Source: Podarcis gaigeae (lineage: Eukaryota). Taken from it: a stretch of DNA of 64,000 nt. Shown in pieces: positions 20,659 to 48,652 of this stretch. The stretch's first letter is position 1, and every line of letters begins with the position of its first letter. The notes below the pieces were generated by a model that searched no databases, was not told the DNA's origin, and saw only the letters and a program-made list of their open reading frames with translations. The stretch is taken from NCBI GenBank assembly GCA_964106915.2, contig OZ066916.1. One strand, 5' to 3'. A program made the position numbers and the translations under genes.

Positions 20659-21220
20659 CTAATTTAGAATAAGAAAAAACCTGAATAGAAATGCTCAGAG
20701 GCTCTCAACAACCAAATTTCAAAGCTTTCACCAGACACTATTTCTGAGAGTATGCTGTAAACATGATAGCAGCTGCACACAGTTTAAAGAAGCTGAATAT
20801 AGAAGGTATGAGATAAACCTCACAAATGCTGTAAGTAAAGAGACCAGGTTTTGGATGGAACCGCCCAGCAGAAGTCTGGCCATGCATTATGCGTGTGAAA
20901 ATCCAAATCTCTGAATGGCTTGAAACCTGTAACAGACAGGTATTAATTCTGAAAAGGGGATGGCAAAACAAAGGTTAGTCGAAAACTATGTATTAGATCA
21001 GTTGGTACATGTAATATTACCCGCATATAAAATGCTGTTGTGTTTTAAGCAATACAGAAGCAGACATGCAATGGCACTCATTGTTCTTAACTTTCACCCC
21101 TATTAAGTATATTTTTAAAATCCTGCATTTCCTGGCCTGAAGACTCTCCCTTCTTCCTCAACTGATTAAAAAAGAAATTGTCCTTCAAAGTTAATCTTGT
21201 TTGGTGCTTGCAGACTAATA

Positions 21221-32806: not shown

Positions 32807-33909
32807 CTAAAAGTGAGTATAAAAATATGAATTGTCAGCATTTTATGAATGGTAAATGATTAATACTTTGAATTTTAATATGATATATGTACAATATAAA
32901 GTCACTTACTTACCAGAGTTCCACCCAAACTGTGAATGTTAGCAGTTCAATGCAGAAGTGATGTCAGTGATTCAACAGCACACGGTGTGATAAAAGATTG
33001 AAACACAACATGCATCGGTAAACCAAAAGCCTATGCTCTGCATACATCAAGAGGGTTAGTGGAAGATAAAATAGTAGATGATCGCATAGTGAGCAAAAAA
33101 GACACGTACCTGAAAAGCAAACTGTCATGCTATCTATGTGCTTTGTGAGAAGTTAGCATATATTGAGGAAACAGTATGTGGTACAAAAACACACATGCTA
33201 TTCATGTTTACAGCATACAGCACTTTTACATAGACACCCAAACACATAAGGATCAAGTATTGTAGCTACTTAAATGCACTGCAACTGTGTTGTATTAAAA
33301 GTCATCCATTAGGAACAACATTTAAGAAGTATGTGCAGAATAGTCTTCCTTTGCATATATTCTCAGGCATTTTGTAATGCCTTCCAAAGGCAGTGTCAAA
33401 TGTAATAGATCTTAAAGTATTATCTCATAGTTAATGTGACTATAAACTCCAAATGATGTACCCAGTTGAAATTTAATGAACTTCGGAAATATGGCATACT
33501 TCCTGAAATACTTATCGGAGAGCATATAGAAGAGTAGAGAGGCTATGGAACTTCCACGTGGTGTTTCTGAAGTACAGACGTTTGACAGAATTCAAAGTAT
33601 GGCTTTTAAAAAGAAGGGTTAAGTGATGTATGATTCTATGCTCTTAGTTCATGCAAGACACAAGGTATAAAAGCCTGTTCATATACAACTTTCCACTTGT
33701 CCATTTATAGACATTCAGCTATAATTCTAATTCCACAAACCGATCGAAAGCTGTCATTCTTTTAGTTCTGATTTTGTTTGTGTGATACACACAATTCGGT
33801 GCAGGTTTTTGTTTTTAGTATTCATACAGAATTCCAAAACCATGCAATGGATCAGATTCAGAGAAGCATATATACTACAGCCAGCAACATAACTCAAACT
33901 GTTGACTAC

Positions 33910-38516: not shown

Positions 38517-38651
38517 CTGTTTCTTAGGAGAATCTGCTTTTTCAGACTTTTCTCCTCCGCCTTTGCCGAGGCTCTTGGTGATGTTTGAAACCCATTTCAG
38601 TAAGTCCCCAGCTTTTTCAACGTGTTCTTTCTTCTCCTCTTCCACTGACTT
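38517..38651 (-). CDS. DST: DST a/b exon ([23 protein letters not shown]...PKKQ)
   Basis: 135 nt, phase 0/0. Confidence 0.92.
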
Positions 38652-39192
38652 CTGATGAACAATGTGCATTGCAAATATATATATATATTTAAAATTGTAG
38701 GTATATTAAGGTTACAGCCAACCCGAAAAACAGTTACACCGTCAAAAATTTTATTGTGGAAGATGCCAGATAATGAGCTTTATTTTTACTTTCTTTCTTT
38801 TTTATCCCCATTACCAGTCATTCTTATGCATGCTTTTTTTAAAAAAAAAAGGTAAACAATAATAAAAAAAAGTAATTGAAGTAATTAATTCAAAACATCT
38901 GAAAAAACTAAGATAGCCATTATGATACATATAAACACATTCATATACATAGATGATGGAACTCACATTACAGAAACCTCCCAGCCACCACTGCACAAGC
39001 CAAATCTAAGCAAGGGTTTGCCAGGAAAAACACTCTAAATCTCAGCCTTTGCATTAGATGTACACCCAGTTCTAGATTATTATGTTGTTGAAGAAGACAA
39101 TGAAATTCAATAACATACTTCAATCCTGTGCAATTAACATAGCATCTTACATGTTTCTCCTGAGAAGGAAAATTACTAATTTTGTAGTCAAC

Positions 39193-40334: not shown

Positions 40335-42125
40335 TTATGACTGTGAGGAAAAATACAGACTAGAAATTCCTGAGGAAATGAGCTCAGCTGCTTCTAGCAA
40401 TCGTAGCCCTGTGTGGCAGTCAAAAACCGCATTATCAAGGGCTTCTTTATACGTCAATTTCTTCTTTGTCTTGGGACACGTAATACCTTTTAAGTAGAAT
40501 TTGTCATTTTTCATCTTTGTAGCAGTGACGGCATCAATAATGCCCCTTTTAATAGCTTCTTCCATCGATAATCTGCAATGAGACTTGGGATCTATCAATC
40601 CACCAGTCAGATGTTGATACTCTAGGCAGCGAGTGCCCATTTCTTTCTCTAGGACATTTGTGTTCATTGCTTCAATGGCTGACAGAACACTCTTTGTTAC
40701 AGGGTGAATAATCCCAGTAAAGACCAGTTCACACTGCTGGACGTGCTTAGCAGACGCCTCATCAATCAGCTCCCTTTGCAAGGCCTCTGCCACACTATAT
40801 CTCTTCCCAGTAAAGGGATCAATTATACCTCCCGTACTTGCTTGTGCTTCAAGGCACCTCAGTGCCGTGGTTCTCTCCACTAGGTTTTTGCGAGCAGCTT
40901 TCAGAAGAGGCATTCTCTCATTTGTCTCGGGCAGCCAGACACCAGCAATGGGGCTGTTGACATCTGTCTGTGGTTTAGAATTGCTCAACAAAACATCCGC
41001 AAGCTCGCTGGCTGTGATTTGCCCTTCCTTGTATTGACTGACCAGCATTCTATCAACTTTGCCATCAGTTAATGCCTCGTCAATGTTGAACTGCATTCCA
41101 GTTTTTAGATCTGTCAGCACAAGGTAAGAATTTCCATGGTGATCAAAGCATGTGGATTCTTTCCACTGAAATTCTTGCCCTGACAGCTGGAGGTAGGTAC
41201 TTTTGTCTATCAGGGACTTTTTATAAGCCTCGTAGGAGGTCATTTCTGCTCCAGTTGTAATATCTACCACAGATATTTTATGAATTTTTTCTGCAGACGG
41301 GGTGGTTATTTTTCTCTCCCCAACAGGGAGCAGGAAGCATTTGCTTCCGATATCAAGTAAACACAGCTTCAGCAAATCATTATAATACATGGCTTGCCTA
41401 TTATTTGGATTCTGGAAGACTTTTTTATTACTGGAATGTTCATATATAAATTTCAGAACGGTGTTGTTCAGCAAGCCCAGCTGGACCGCAACTTCAGGAC
41501 GCACACGGACACTTCTCACAGGGTCAATAATACCTCCACTTGCTATCTGAGCTTCAATAAAACTTTTGCCTTTCTGCCTTTCAAGGATTCTGGTTTCAAT
41601 TGCTTGATAAACAGACAGCTTTTTCCCAGAAAATAGATATCCTAAAACTGCCTTTTCTGCCTCAAGAAGCCTGCTTTTGTATTCATGATCTACAAGTCCC
41701 TTGGCAACTGAATCATCAACCGAGTATTTCTGACCTGCTGTGGGGTCAATGATAAAACCAGTGGCGGCCTGGGCTTCAAGCAGTGCTAACACAGATGCTT
41801 TTTCAATTATTCTCTGCTTAGCTGCAGAAGCAAATGAGACCTTCCCTTTACTAGATTCAATATACAACCCAGCTATTGCAGTAGGCTTAGTCAAAAAATT
41901 CTCAAGATTTTTTTGAACCTCAGCAATGGCCTTCTTTCCTGAATGAAGCTGTTCAGCTGTGCTCAGGTCTAGAAGTTTAACTTCAATCAACTGCTTGGCA
42001 GTTACATCATGGCGGAGACCTTGAAATTTGATATTATCATATTCAGAGGGGATCAGAGCAACCTCCTTGGCTTGCTTTTCCTCTAAGATGGCACTGATCT
42101 TTGATAAATCTTCATTTTGGAGATT
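40335..42125 (-). CDS. DST: BPAG1e terminal coding exon: two plakin (plectin) repeat domains and stop codon
   Basis: Acceptor ctatttacag|AATCTC; motifs LLEAQAATGFIIDP, LEAQASTGGIIDP and HTGLRLLE; ends SSLYFSSQS*. Confidence 0.93.
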   Translation of the reverse strand, partial: NLQNEDLSKISAILEEKQAKEVALIPSEYDNIKFQGLRHDVTAKQLIEVKLLDLSTAEQLHSGKKAIAEVQKNLENFLTKPTAIAGLYIESSKGKVSFASAAKQRIIEKASVLALLEAQAATGFIIDPTAGQKYSVDDSVAKGLVDHEYKSRLLEAEKAVLGYLFSGKKLSVYQAIETRILERQKGKSFIEAQIASGGIIDPVRSVRVRPEVAVQLGLLNNTVLKFIYEHSSNKKVFQNPNNRQAMYYNDLLKLCLLDIGSKCFLLPVGERKITTPSAEKIHKISVVDITTGAEMTSYEAYKKSLIDKSTYLQLSGQEFQWKESTCFDHHGNSYLVLTDLKTGMQFNIDEALTDGKVDRMLVSQYKEGQITASELADVLLSNSKPQTDVNSPIAGVWLPETNERMPLLKAARKNLVERTTALRCLEAQASTGGIIDPFTGKRYSVAEALQRELIDEASAKHVQQCELVFTGIIHPVTKSVLSAIEAMNTNVLEKEMGTRCLEYQHLTGGLIDPKSHCRLSMEEAIKRGIIDAVTATKMKNDKFYLKGITCPKTKKKLTYKEALDNAVFDCHTGLRLLEAAELISSGISSLYFSSQS

Positions 42126-43235
42126 CTGTAAATAGGAATTGTTTGACATAATGAAGGATACTGTACTTAGAAAATAGCATCAAGTTATTAATCTAGCCCA
42201 TAAACAAGGAGAGGGGGAGAGATGCAGAATGTGAACAGCAAACACTAAGAATCAGCAAACTTTATTAACCCTGGCAATATGGAATTTTGTTTGAGAAGGA
42301 AAGTGGGATGGAATGACAGCAAAGTGTAAAAAGAGAAACTATCTCTTAGCAATATCATTACCCTTCTAATTGCAAACTCAGGTGGTGAATGAAGGCAGGA
42401 AATCCCCAAGATTCACAGAAGCACTATATATTAAAACCTAAGGGGGCAAAACCAAACAAACCCTCAAAGGAGACAATGCTCAGAGCATGCTCAGTAGCTA
42501 TGGAATGCAGAGTGCAGCTGGAAAAGAAAAACAAAACAGCGTGGGAAGGGTGGAATGGCCAGTTTGGAGGGAACTGCTGAGAGAACCCTGAATCTCATTT
42601 CCTTTGGGCGAAATGAGAGACTGCACCTTTTTGCTCCAAGTACCACTTTTAAAAATCTAATGCGAATGTGAACAACTTGGATTTGTGAATTTCTTTCTTC
42701 ATTCTAGGAAGCCAGGTCTGTTGTATGTGCAGTACAATACTTAAGAGTGATCTTGGACTTCTGTAGGCCACAAAAAATCATTAGGCAGTTGGATGGGGAG
42801 CTTTTAAGGTTAGAAGTGCACTTTTTGCCTCCACCTCATGTCTTGTTGAAATCATAGGGTGTGGGGACAACTGTGGGCAGAGAATGGTGTAAAGACACAT
42901 CATTCTGCCTGCTGCTTTTATCCGGCAAACACCATTTTGCAGAGAAGTGTGCTCTTCGGTATGTAGGGCCCCCTCTTTTAAACAAATGGGGAACCTTTTG
43001 GTGGGTGTTGGTGGGTGAAATTTTTGCTTCCACACATGCAAGCAACTTCTGCATCTGCACAAATGTCTTGGGGTTATAATGCGGATTGATGCGTGCCAGA
43101 TGTAAGAAAGTGTTCGATATCAGATAAGATGAAAACATAGAAATAGAACAGAAAAGCAATGAAGATTACAGGAGAACAGAAAGTTGTAACAACAACACCC
43201 AAGCAATATCAAACGCCATCAAATGTGCCATGTAC

Positions 43236-45923
43236 CTCCAATGGATGCAGACGCTTCCCTAAGCCCACTTCATAACTCTCTTCAAGCCTGGAACTGAGGA
43301 GTTTGCCGTCTCTCAATTTATCTATTTCTGAAATTCTTGTGATAGGGTTGCTCTTATCAACCGTTATCTCAAACTCTGTGCTTGTCTGGGAAACATATTC
43401 GGCATAGGACTGTTGACTTATTCCATTTTCCAGTTGGTGGGTTACTCCGGACAACTGGAATGGCTTCTCTCGTTGCAATGAATCAGTGGCAACTGTTTGC
43501 AACTTCTGTGCAACCAGCGGTTCAGATTTGCAACTTGAGCCACTTAGGTGTCTCCTTCTTAATAAAGGAGATGTGGTCGTACAGAGGTTAATATGTTCAA
43601 AATCTCTTGGGGAGGTGTCTCCCAAGTAACTAAACCCATTTCCCTTCCACCCAAAGTCTAACTGGATGTTCCTTTTGTTGATCTCATTCTGAAACCAACG
43701 CAGCTGATTGCTGTGATCTCTTTTCTGCAGGTCTATTTGGTGCTTCAAGTTCTCTACTGTCCGCCTCTGCATTTGCAACTCTTCTTCCATTTTGCGGTAT
43801 TTCTGCACATACTCCATTTCTGCATGCTTGCCTTGCTGAAGCTGCTCACGGGATTTCTGAAGTCTGTCTTGCAGGTCTTCAATTTGAAGTTTATACATTC
43901 TAATGTTGTCTTGAGCCATGTGGTTTTCTTGCTGCAGGGTGATGCATTCCATCCTGATACCAGATATGTCATTTTCCGCTATGTTGTGAGTTTCCAAGAG
44001 CTTTTCAAATTTCTTCCTAAACTCTTCTGCAGAATGCTTGAATGCAATTGATTCTTCCTGAAGTAAAGCCACATTTTGGCGTGCCATTTGTTCCTCCAAG
44101 GTCTTCTGATGCAAGTCGTCTTGCAGCTTCTTCATCTTGCTATTGAGCTCATGAATATGAGACTGCTGCTGCTGGACCTTCTGCTCGTTCATCTTCATTT
44201 CCATAGTGAATGTGCTCATCTGAGTACGTAGATTTCTTATTTCCATCTCTGCATTCATGTTATAAGCATTGTCCCTGTCACATTTCTGCTTAAATTCACC
44301 GGCTAATTCTTTTGCTTTTATTAGCTCATCTTCTAATCTCTTGATGTGATCCAAGTGCTCCTGCTCAAGTATTATCTGTTTGTGCAGTTGTTCATTTGTG
44401 ATACGTAGTTGCTCTTTGAAACCTTCAGCCAGGGCTTTTAATTCATCATTTTTTCTGTCAATAATTTGTCTTTCAAGAATTATCTTCTCTGAATCAGTCC
44501 GGACTTCAGTCATCATTATTTTGGTCTCGCTGTTCCATCTAGAAAGCTCCTCAACCTTCTGTTTTAACTTTTCCACTAAGTGATTGCTATCTGCTAAATC
44601 ATCTTTCAGTCTTTGAATTTTCAGCTGGTTTTCTTTTTCTTCTCTTGTCTTTTGAAGGAATTGTTCCTGCATTTTTTTTAACTGTTCTTGTAGGCTGGTT
44701 GCTTCCCCTCTGCTTGAAACAGTTCTCTGTTCAGCTGCCATTTTTTCTTGCTGAAGAGAAGTGATTTGGGAATGCAATTGCTGAATAGTAATTCCAGTGT
44801 TTGTGTGTGTCCTAGCCAACTCTTCCAGCTCCATCTTTAACAGTGCCTTCTCCTTCTGAAGTGACCTCAGCTCTTCTTGATACTTCATATTTATTTTCTT
44901 CAGATCCATGGCTTCTTGCATTACCTCTTCAGCTTTGCCTGTGGTTTTCTGCAGCTGCCTGTCAAGCTCTTTCAGCTGCTCCAAGTATCCTTGCTCTACC
45001 AGCTCTTTCTGATCCAGCTCTACTTTAAGGCGCCTGAGAGAATTATTGGCATCATCCAGTTTTTCTTTTAGTAAGCGAGCCTTTTCTTCAGCAGACGCAT
45101 TCTGCAGTTCAAGTTCACACAGTTCGTATTTTAGGTCTTTGATGGTTTTCTCGGACTTTTTGTTGGCAAATGTTAGCTCATCCACCAGTTGCTGGAATTC
45201 CTCTATGTTTTTCAGTTCTTGCTTTTCTCTGAAAAAGTCTGAACCTGTTGGCAACAGAGTTTCTTGTCCTATTATAGTAATTTGCCTTCTGACTTCGGTT
45301 ATTTCCTTTTCTCTGCATTTGCTTTTCACTAGACTACCTTGAAACTCCATGTCTTGTTCCATTTCCTTAATGAGTTTCACAAGCTTCTCTTCTTCAGCAG
45401 TCTTCTTCCTCAGCTCCTCCATCAGTGCTTTCTTTTGCTGCTCTAAATCTTGAAGATTGGTGTCCTTCCTTCTTAACTTATCTTCAAGAGCATCTCTAGC
45501 TACAGCAGTTTCCTCTAGCTGCATTCTGAAAGCTCTGAACTTTTCCTCAACCATACTTCTCTGAGCCTCAGTCTTCAAAGCGAGCTGCTTCACACGCTCC
45601 AACTCCTGCTCTGCGTCTTCTTTCTCTTTAAGAGCATCCTCTAGTTCCATGCGATAGCGCTTTGCTTCTTGCTCAGCCTTGGCTTTCTGGAGAGAAATCT
45701 CCTCCATTTTGGTCTGCTGCTTCTTCATTTCTTTCTCTGCATCGGCCTTTGCTTTTGGAAGTTCTACTTCCAACTGGAACTTCTGTTTCCTCAACTCATC
45801 CAACGTCTCCTCAAGCTCATTTATCCTCTCCATAAGTTTTCTGTTCTCACTCATTACTTCTTTTTGCTGCTGCTCCAGATCAGAATATTCACCACGTACT
45901 AGTGCCTCCTTATTCTTCAGGAT
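43236..45923 (-). CDS. DST: BPAG1e/BP230-specific coiled-coil rod exon (896 codons)
   Basis: ORF 43209-45854 extends to the acceptor at 45923 (ILKNKEALVRGEYSDL...). Heptad-rich; ends ...LHPLE|gtacat; 2688 nt, phase 0/0. Confidence 0.95.
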
Positions 45924-46959
45924 CTACCAAAAAAAATAAGGCAACAAGAAACATTGAAATCCATTCTTTTAAAACGTTAGGTAATGTTGTAATGTTAAAA
46001 TGCACAGTTGCAAATACTTACAAACTTCAACTACAGCATGTCAGCAGCACAGACTGAGGGATTCCCACCACCACTGTCACCATCAGAAAGGGACCGTTAG
46101 TTAGAGTAAAGAGAAAGCTGCATGAAGGAATCCACCAGCTGAAGTCCTCAAGAAGAATCCCTTTGCTTTCAGGATAAGAGTTGTTTCATAGGTTGAAGGT
46201 GATGCCCAGAAGCTCACTTGCATGAGTCCTTGCTTAAAAGCTACAGAGCAACTTCTCAGCAAAACACACCATGCAAGAAAAAAGCACTTCCTCATTTGAT
46301 GGTTAGTTGAATAAGAAGAGGAGGGTGTTTTAGTGTAAAACATGATACAATTAGCAAGAAACCACATTTAATTAGCTATGTCCTTCAACAATAGTTATTT
46401 AGGCTCTGAACATAATGCTCTTTCTTTTAACAAAAGACTAGCACAATGTTACAGTATCATTAACTCACCAAGACATACTAATGCAAAGGCAGCTTTATTT
46501 CCTTCTGGATTGAATTTAATTCTTTCTAACTATTGCTGTTAAATGAGATTTTATTTTCCAGTAGATGTCCCATTACACCAATAAATGCGACATCTACTGG
46601 TATATAACACAAACCACAAGATACTTGGAAACGCCAATGCTAAAGATCATTAAAATGTAATAATTTAATTATCTCCCCGCCCACTAATCCTGATCAGCAA
46701 AACAAGTTGTCAGCTGGGAGGTTTCTGTAGCTGATCTTGCTACATAAATGAATAAAAGGAATGATTATGCAAATCAACAGCTTAGCAGTTTGTTTAAATA
46801 TTGCAACTCCATTGAATCAGTTTTAAATCAATTTTCGCACCACACAAAGACATATTTAAGTTTCAAGTGATGATTAGGAATGATTTTGAAGTTGTATTTA
46901 TTTCTATAATACTATTATATTCGTTATGATTGCCTCTGATTTTCAATACAACTATGTAC

Positions 46960-48227
46960 CTCTTTCTTTTTTATTTCTTCCTTTTGGCCTATGCTTTCTC
47001 TGCACATTCTCGATTCAAAAACTGGCTGTTCGTTTCCTGTGTTTCCATACTTTGTTCTCCTGACATCCTCTCTCAGTTTATGATTTTTGTCTTCTTCGAG
47101 TAGCTTTGAATGGTCATGTACATCTTTATGCAGCACTAACTCAGCTAGAAAAAATCCTTCCTTTTTTTTAAAAAAAAAACATATCCACTTCCATCTCTAC
47201 ATTTTCTTTGTGAACACCAGTGAATAGAGTGGTCAAAGCACAGACAACATTCTGTGTCAAACTCTCAGCATTTGAAGATTGCAAGAAAGGGTATCTTCAA
47301 ATTTTTCCTTTCTTGGTTCATGTCCAAATTACCCTTCCTCAAAATTATTTTGCTTTAGGAACTGGCCAGCACTACATCACTATTTATTTGAATAACATAA
47401 CAATACTGAATTCATATTTTGGTTGACGTTGCTTTGCATCATTCCACAATTTAGTTCATACACTTTTAGACTATGCTGTATAACTGTGTTTTCTACTGTG
47501 TAAACCTTTGAAACAGCACAGAAACAAGTTGTGCTTCCTTGGCCTTCAACATTTATTTTCTTTGGAATTTGTACAGTCTTTCTTGTGGCGTAGCTGTTCT
47601 AAAATTGCTGCTACCTAGAGACATATTATGTAATGTATTAGTAGTATTCGCCTGTCAGAAGGACACGGTTGTCTTAATTGTTGCTGCATTGTCTTACTGA
47701 TTCCTTCCTTGGTTTTAAATTGCTTAGGGCAGTTTTGCAACAATGGCTAACAATTCACCTGTTTGAATATTCTCTTCCACCTTTATCAGTACACTGTGAG
47801 AATATTTTTCAAAGTCTTTATTCAGGTTCTCAGGGTGCAACCTTTCTGAAAGGCAAGTGGGTTGTTGAATTGGGCTGATTCCCATGGGATAATGCCCTGC
47901 CTTCAGACTTCTATTCTTTATTCTCATCACAGGCTCAGAATTAGTTTTCCCATGTTACTCTTGCTCTCTCCTTCAGTGAAATAGACCATTTAAATTTCTC
48001 CTCCCTTTCATCAGCAACATGCACTGCCTCCACTGGCAGCTTTGTCTGCCTGCCATTTTTATTTGCAGACCGAATAGAAAACTCTTTTCTGAATTGGCCT
48101 TGTTCAATACTATACATCACAGGAACTATTGAGATATCTTTGCTTGCATGCAGATGCCTCTCTTTGCCATACTTCCCAACCCTGTCCATCCTGTCATCAC
48201 TACTTAGACTACTATCAAATCCAGCTG
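46960..48227 (-). pseudogene. Putative decayed (fossil) coding exon in a DST intron
   Basis: Acceptor tttcaacctag, donor GAG|gtacat. Between them are consecutive coding-like, E/K/N/S-rich open stretches broken by frameshifts and stops. Confidence 0.5.
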
Positions 48228-48553
48228 CTAGGTTGAAAGCACAGCAGTGTGAGAGAGCTTATAAGCCAATAAATATAAAGGTATTTTACAAGTTTCTCAG
48301 TACCTTAGGGAAATTCTCTTATAGAACCAATATCCTGCAATAGAATTTTAGCAAACTAAAGTAGGAAAAATAGTAAGGACAATGAGAGCAGATAATTTTA
48401 GGTCAGTCTTGGTGTTCACTAGATACGTGATGTCAACCTTCATTTTATATCTAGAGAGTACGTAAGGAGTTCACATCATCTATCCTTATACTTAAAAAAG
48501 TATAGCTGCCTTAGTGGTTTTACTATCCCTTTGAAAGTTATCTGCTGACTTAC

Positions 48554-48652
48554 CTCTTCCTCCTCCAGCCTTTTGAGAGAGTCACCAGCAAACTTTATAT
48601 ACTGAGTCATCAAGGTCACCAAAGCTGTGTAGCGTGTTCGTAAGTCCATAAA
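48554..48652 (-). CDS. DST: DST last shared plakin exon ([33 protein letters not shown]), branch point between the e and a/b isoforms
   Basis: 99 nt, phase 0/0, donor gtaagt; joins in frame to both the 45923 and 38651 acceptors. Confidence 0.95.

Follow-up and report, generated by a model that had tools for sequence, protein, structure and literature searches.

The choice among isoforms of dystonin, a cell-scaffold protein, sets whether it functions in skin, nerve or muscle. The isoform scheme derives from mouse and human. In mammals, BPAG1-a, -b and -e diverge right after the plakin domain, the rod and the tail are each encoded by a single exon, and the b isoform contains a giant, partly low-complexity exon (Leung 2001, PMC2196450). 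The rodless BPAG1eS (PMC10602294) is compared here as a mammalian form alongside a, b and e. Mouse and human skin cDNAs join exon 22 to either exon 23 or exon 24 (PMC2196450, PMC10602294), and the parts of these two papers that were consulted mention no further exon of mammalian DST that would separate the rod from the last plakin exon. Long-range RNA boxes have been reported around exons 47-52 of DST (Pervouchine 2014, PMC4174434; table 1 of PMC8052449).

Our literature search on an exon that follows the plakin domain in birds or lizards yielded no paper. The kind of event described below is known, and both forms of the exon stand unremarked in automatic annotations. The avian dystonin models of Struthio (XP_068793519.1), Columba (XP_064912233.1), Anser (XP_047934760.1) and Parus (XP_015476460.1) share with the lizard locus an insert between KRLEEEE and KSxEEEKK, in phase 0-0, which is a single exon of charged low-complexity sequence and never occurs together with the rod. 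Unlike the lizard, which has about 420 broken codons, 48 of them live, the avian models, all automatic predictions, carry an intact insert of 488-535 aa (323-324 aa in galliforms). The lacertid RefSeq models of P. muralis (XP_077782429.1, XP_077782417.1) and Zootoca (XP_060128491.1) contain a 48-aa version whose junctions equal those of an RNA-like contig; they annotate the last 144 nt only and leave the decayed upstream part unmentioned. A preliminary description of the lizard stretch had spoken of a lost or unknown isoform, of which "unknown" does not hold, as the exon is already present in automatic RefSeq and Ensembl protein models. In birds the exon would make the linker about 500 residues longer, and to the mouse and human scheme it adds an unstudied class of isoform. 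The lizard locus documents the decay of an exon with partial rescue via an internal acceptor, in which relatives still reveal which breaks are recent, and is thereby of relevance to specialists in plakins and splicing evolution.

The dystonin locus and a broken exon within it

The window, that is the whole analysed stretch of 64,000 nucleotides from the lacertid lizard Podarcis gaigeae (assembly GCA_964106915.2, contig OZ066916.1), covers the central part of dystonin (DST/BPAG1), which is encoded on the minus strand. In tblastn its exons mostly match isoform X25 of Podarcis muralis at 88-100%; the domain names used here (plakin, rod, plectin repeats, a/b/e) follow parts of PMC2196450 and database labels. 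Transcript evidence came from assembled contigs of three runs (X15, X17 and X19), which were taken to be RNA by guess. The last plakin-domain exon (48554..48652, minus strand) ends with KRLEEEE in phase 0 at a donor GT at 48553, according to both tblastn with isoform X25 and RNA-like contigs. It is the branch point between the e and the a/b isoforms, as RNA-like contigs hold the joints 45923-48554 and 47103-48554. The former leads to the BPAG1e coiled-coil rod exon of 2688 nt (43236..45923, minus strand), which was also covered by a 2688-nt contig. Further along lie the BPAG1e plectin-repeat tail exon (40335..42179, minus strand; an open frame with an approximate acceptor, identified from the DST anatomy given in part of PMC2196450) and the first a/b-specific exon (KSVEEEKK..., 38517..38651, minus strand; tblastn and contigs). 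Two observations concern the rod exon itself. In 35 of 222 lizard and bird dystonin models, the rod exon (45923-43236) is joined to 38651, giving the order plakin, rod, KSxEEEKK, and two such Podarcis models insert 69 aa of the tail exon first; this hybrid, a spectrin-repeat isoform with the BPAG1e rod, lies outside the three major mouse forms as given in the consulted part of PMC2196450. In addition, one X19 contig joins 46022 directly to the start of the rod, omitting a 98-nt GTAAGT..AG intron, which marks a cryptic donor just 5' of the rod exon.

The stretch of interest, 48227-46960, sits within the 2630-nt intron upstream of the rod exon and had been read in the preliminary description as a fossil coding exon. 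All six peptide pieces named there are present at their places, and the donor GAG/GTACAT at 46960/46959 is the same 9-mer as the donor of the rod exon. The stretch is purine-rich, as had been stated: its purine fraction is 0.602 (0.585 without its last 144 nt), and that of the intron pieces on its two sides 0.474 and 0.486. Across 39 overlapping segments of intron in the window, the mean is 0.487 and the maximum 0.526; real exons range from 0.572 to 0.632. The purine rise sets in near 48250 and ends near 46900. The sequence is also codon-like: based on DST codon usage, the larger open stretches score +0.12, +0.05, -0.015 and +0.13 bit/codon, and 92 intronic open stretches score -0.22 ± 0.11 with a maximum of +0.09.

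Other features turned out differently. The supposedly good acceptor is of moderate strength: in a rough matrix made from about 25 sites of the window, the tandem AG (TAG CAG, 48225..48230, minus strand), likely the old acceptor, reaches 2.5 bits for an exon start at 48227 and 4.5 bits for 48224. These values rank 12 and 7 among 133 AGs, and real acceptors score 0.7-14.1 bits; use of the tandem AG was not seen in the three RNA-like runs. The AGFDSS piece, with which the coding sequence was thought to begin, is out of phase with this acceptor, since phase-0 entry at 48227 yields QLDLIVV and a stop, that is 7 codons. Instead of a few stops, the donor frame holds 18, and the other two frames hold 22 and 36. 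With the stop after 7 codons, a length of 1268 nt, which is not a multiple of 3, and no joint at 48227 in the three RNA-like runs, the whole of 48227-46960 fails as a live exon. The decayed part is the 5' 1124 nt of the old cassette exon (47104..48227, minus strand), recognised by its composition, its stops and its alignment to the insert of birds; it retains open stretches of 94, 76 and 71 codons with frameshifts and stops between them.

Some of these lesions are lacking in relatives. A single base at 47955 has no counterpart in two of four runs (X17 and the DNA-like X14, which is from another organism; X15 has no such row and X19 no cover there), and P0122, a natural open reading frame of a relative, reads through the first frameshift between the described pieces, with P0124 also being open across 47955. 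Two bases at 47667..47668, to be placed at 47667 or 47668, are missing in all four runs. Without the base at 47955 the AGFDSS and NSEPV pieces become one open stretch of 177 codons, and both changes together put five of the six peptide pieces into the donor frame. We generated a relatives' state by script, in which both indels were removed from the window and 11 shared substitutions applied. Its donor-frame stops fall from 18 to 13, compared to a mean of 28.8 in dinucleotide shuffles, none of which (0/2000) had as few. The longest run within the exon is 166 codons (1/2000 shuffles), and the three longest runs sum to 317 codons (269 without the live exon) vs a maximum of 252 among 117 intronic segment-frames. 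Even in this state, no fewer than three frameshifts persist, along with several stops. Coding-type composition, a residual long frame and lesions partly absent in relatives bear out a decayed phase-0 coding exon.

How else might the stretch be explained? If it were plain intron in which a 144-nt piece had recently become an exon, the open stretches 5' of this piece having arisen by chance, one would expect what is seen in the intron-like divergence to the relative of run X17 (16/327 in the broken part vs 12/482 in intron, p = 0.08; no sign of constraint), in the unremarkable acceptor at 48227 with no use seen, and in the borderline stop depletion of the unchanged window without the live exon (p = 0.06). 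However, the purine content exceeds that of all 39 intronic segments, the codon scores are above or near the top of the 92 intronic stretches, the two independently observed indels both bring pieces into one frame, and, with the live exon left out of the relatives' state, 1/2000 shuffles had as few stops and 0/2000 as long a run, so that this explanation is largely refuted and very improbable. Still harder to credit is an origin as a processed pseudogene or as a fragment of an old transposon. A very old repeat could go unnoticed in the searches made here, but nothing positive was found: the stretch is single copy in the genome both as DNA and as protein, its six frames match no Pfam family, it contains no tandem array, and its only two protein matches among 1.84 billion representatives (HMMER) are the same locus in relatives. 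The earlier remark that transposon hallmarks are missing was confirmed in this respect, as DNA, protein and Pfam searches gave no other copies, no parent gene and no element domains. The broken stretch might also belong to a long non-coding or poison exon (about 48227-46022) that is spliced to the rod and tunes BPAG1e or gives a headless rod transcript. In run X19, contigs span 46022-47930 and 47988-48186; one of them reaches 46022 and then carries 30 further letters, 27 of which match the start of the rod. Against this, the evidence comes from one run at a depth of 5.7 vs 92.5 for the rod, runs X15 and X17 are unspliced through 46022, no junction was seen at 48227, and the rod frame meets a stop 4 codons before 46022; we regard this possibility as improbable. 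As run X15 holds the whole intron unspliced, pre-mRNA explains the cover, and RNA cover of the broken part was not counted as inclusion. Its composition, its frameshifts and stops, and the 144-nt splice form show the stretch to be a broken dystonin coding exon.

Searches with parts of the stretch outside dystonin remained empty: the first 94-aa piece gave 36 candidates among proteins of 166-2000 aa, a range that excludes dystonin, none of which scored, and the ESM Atlas gave one match at 0.75 (a KNL1 fragment), which is below the meaningful level.

A 144-nt cassette still in use

The designation as a fossil holds for the 5' 1124 nt; the remaining 3' 144 nt (46960..47103, minus strand) are still spliced in as a live cassette exon of phase 0-0 encoding 48 charged residues (LLEEDKN...EIKKKE). 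A search with the donor frame, in which stops were written as X, returned one match among 570 candidates, dystonin isoform X25 of P. muralis. In this protein, KRLEEEE and KSVEEEKK are separated by 48 residues, which correspond to 47103-46960; 46 of the 48 match the window. The 48-aa exon is found in 6 of 34 lacertid proteins from two genera (P. muralis isoforms X8, X9, X10, X19 and X25, and Zootoca isoform X19) and accompanies both a- and b-type models. Correspondingly, contig 11 of run X17 (199 nt) leads from the plakin exon through 47103-46960 into the 38651 exon, whose first 25 bases it matches (25/25), and contig 14 of the same run skips the cassette. The depths were 4.7 for the included and 14.8 for the skipped form, values from which no inclusion rate was derived. 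Neither of the other two RNA-like runs gave an inclusion contig. RNA junctions from the KRLEEEE exon, which had been named as a check on the proposed exon, were thus seen to 47103 in one of three RNA-like runs, but none to 48227.

The cassette has AG..GT ends, a length divisible by 3, an open frame, and both an inclusion and a skip form in run X17, and is therefore frame-keeping. Its retained donor GTACAT (46954..46959, minus strand) is identical to that of the rod exon and is used towards the acceptor at 38651. None of the 6 lacertid 48-aa proteins, and none of 33 bird proteins with an insert, continues into the BPAG1e rod. The placement after the plakin domain was right, but the exon goes with dystonin-a/b via the KSVEEEKK exon and is not joined to the rod, between which and the plakin domain it had been put. 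What is produced is a minor dystonin-a/b splice form with 48 extra charged residues.

Just upstream, at 47160-47176, lies a T-run/A-run. The AG at its end is in frame and free of stops, would start an exon at 47160 and scores 4.7 bits, above the acceptor actually used. This AG was not seen in any model or contig, and the T/A-run is variable or skipped in contigs of relatives.

The insert of birds and its relation to the lizard exon

Of 84 bird proteins, 33 have an insert between KRLEEEE and KSMEEEKK; these 33 come from 11 species, among which are ostrich, goose, chicken, pigeon and passerines. The protein sample comprised the best 120 of 896 scored dystonins plus cluster members, is biased to lizard-like flanks, and holds the junction in 222 of 242 proteins; crocodilians and mammals are absent from the protein rows compared. 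In this sample (best 120 of 896 matches plus cluster members), none of 96 proteins from squamates other than lacertids (8 species) and none of 8 from sea turtles (4 species) showed such an insert. The expectation of an intact exon in other lineages is thus met in birds by a likely counterpart, a single-exon insert at the same junction, but not in these squamates and sea turtles. That the bird insert is one exon follows from P0193, an open reading frame of the goose cluster, which is open through both insert ends and terminates E/V as at the lizard donor.

Pfam returned for the goose ORF only Med26_C at E = 0.063, under the cut-off of that family. The charge-hydropathy index called 76-93% of bird insert windows unfolded, but also 60-62% in plakin and spectrin controls, and separates the two poorly. 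Goose and ostrich share 58% identity in the insert, compared to 85% for the rod in duck and ostrich. In chicken and guineafowl (P0050, P0101-P0105), about 200 central residues are missing in frame compared to other birds.

The lizard cassette and the bird insert have junction and phase in common. Bird inserts searched against the window by tblastn, hmmsearch and local frameshift alignment gave nothing significant; the local frameshift alignment scored 30.4 in the region and up to 42.6 elsewhere in the window, and the goose ORF had no match in the lizard's own genome. This lack of matches in unanchored searches is expected, as the insert diverges fast and its identity between lizard and ostrich, scaled by the rod, would be about 18%. 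A frameshift-aware alignment anchored at the donor had 19-23% identity (about 21%) over about 385 columns, starting from bird position ~107, which is consistent with the ~18% expected from rod-exon rates. The earlier estimate of about 420 residues matches the ~420 broken codons of the lizard; the bird exon exceeds this by about 110 aa and aligned only from that position on.

For statistical support, a 12-bird profile anchored at the donor was compared with shuffled profiles. Against the relatives' state it reached z = 3.1-4.1, with 0/300 shuffles as good at each of three block sizes; against the unchanged window z was 2.2-2.5 (3-7/300 shuffles), and 2 of 42 control segments were higher (2.94, 2.69). 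We quote shuffled-profile nulls and set aside codon-shuffle nulls (z 3.0-5.1) as too generous, since the control segment 23000-24265 reached z = 3.49 with them and a reversed profile also lay above the shuffle mean. When 11 donor-like sites in the interval from the plakin to the KSVEEEKK exon were compared as anchors, the donor at 46960 came out best (2.48, next 0.62). The unedited P0122 matched the bird HMM at positions 159-234 with P = 2.6e-5 (1 of 9 segments tested) and beat 300/300 shuffles in overlapping regions of 6 birds. The live 48 aa fell on HMM positions 493-521 of ~535 (P = 0.01). Together with a match at 317-330, three matches lie in order, the latter two being weaker. For the piece 47598-47386, the best place on the bird profile breaks this order (HMM 84-112, P = 0.007). 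Of the 9 segments, 7 did no better than their own shuffles when tested pairwise, and the live 48 aa are one of these. Taken together, these comparisons make it likely that the lizard stretch is orthologous to the bird exon.

Two further explanations accept a coding exon but differ on its origin or on its present role. Lizards and birds may each have gained an insert at a permissive phase-0 junction, the lizard exon then being of separate origin. This would go along with the identity of only ~21%, the missing BLAST or HMM match at the level of the window, the absence of an insert from the sampled turtle and other squamate proteins (best 120 of 896 matches plus cluster members), and the fact that the rod exon can also use this junction. 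We nevertheless consider it unlikely, given the P0122 match to the bird HMM, the donor-anchored z of 3.1-4.1, the three matches in order (HMM 159-234, 317-330, 493-521) and an identity as the rates predict. The other explanation is compatible with a shared origin and concerns function: the 48-aa cassette could be a selected functional lacertid exon, a shortened spacer, instead of a leaky leftover of the donor. It is open and annotated in two genera, occurs with a- and b-type models, and is identical at 43 of 48 residues between P. muralis and Zootoca (5 differ), similar to the functional b-exon region (90.2%). However, it is less conserved than the rod (96.2%; 34/896 differences between P. raffonei and Zootoca) and the exons flanking it (98-100%; 2/125 differences in the next exons), its acceptor in use (AG 47105-47104) scores -4.5 bits, under all 24 real ones, and run X14 has a 2-nt deletion inside the cassette at 47074, in one contig at depth 91, where a compensating change is possible. 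Selection on the cassette is on these grounds possible but doubtful, and the 48-aa cassette is probably near-neutral. Our preferred reading remains that of a broken DST exon whose last 144 nt are still spliced into a/b. Its likely source is a cassette exon of the ancestors of reptiles and birds, which is still intact (~530 aa) in birds.

A predicted long-range RNA pairing and a proposed history

A perfect 17-bp pairing connects 46729-46713 with 38985-38969, 7.7 kb apart. The predicted 5' arm (46713..46729, minus strand) lies 230 nt past the donor of the cassette and the predicted 3' arm (38969..38985, minus strand) about 320 nt before the a/b acceptor, and both the rod and the tail exon of BPAG1e are inside the predicted loop. 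The pairing, predicted from one genome, has -31.5 kcal/mol, and 0/500 shuffles were as stable; this energy-based null was used because a first null had let in low-complexity matches (10/200 at >=17 nt). The 17-mer has three copies in the genome, two of which are the pair itself, and the 5' arm has no difference from relatives among those listed. The pairing may place the epidermal exons for rod and tail in a loop and draw the donor, which lies just outside this loop, close to the acceptor at 38651. Such a loop would account for the cassette occurring with a/b and never with the rod. Against a strict loop stand the 35 models in which the rod itself is joined to KSxEEEKK.

The old exon probably served as a long, charged and probably disordered spacer from the plakin domain to the spectrin-repeat rod of the a/b isoforms. 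In the lizard line, about 100 codons would have disappeared from its 5' end, and three or more frameshifts as well as several stops would have accumulated. Transcripts with such an early stop are generally degraded by nonsense-mediated decay. Inclusion of the whole exon in the lizard would lead to a stop after 7 codons and probably to this fate, and the intact donor, combined with a weak in-frame AG 144 nt upstream, may have given rise to the minor frame-keeping 48-aa cassette. We put forward a wider scenario that we regard as finely balanced: the ancestors of reptiles and birds may have possessed a fourth dystonin module that the mammalian a/b/e scheme lacks, a fast-evolving, disordered spacer exon of ~530 aa after the plakin domain. 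Crown birds would have kept it, galliforms halved it and lizards let it decay, with lacertids rescuing it as a 48-aa mini-exon and the 7.7-kb RNA loop making the exon exclusive with rod and tail.

Among published DST structures, the boxes in the consulted part of PMC4174434 belong to a different exon cluster from that enclosed by the 46713-46729 pair. Pairing around the BPAG1e exons was not found in the consulted texts of PMC4174434 and PMC8052449 on DST RNA structure; the catalogue of PMC8052449 may list the pair. A second perfect 17-bp pair in the window (33202-33218 with 20750-20766) extends to ~22 bp beside a GCATG motif and surrounds the b-specific exon cluster; its word occurs at only these two places in the genome. 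Like the mammalian boxes, as far as these are described in the consulted part of PMC4174434, it combines perfect intronic complementarity over ~10 kb with a loop that would take out an exon cluster, and is likely their lizard counterpart. This resemblance to a published mammalian DST structure lends the pairing method some weight.
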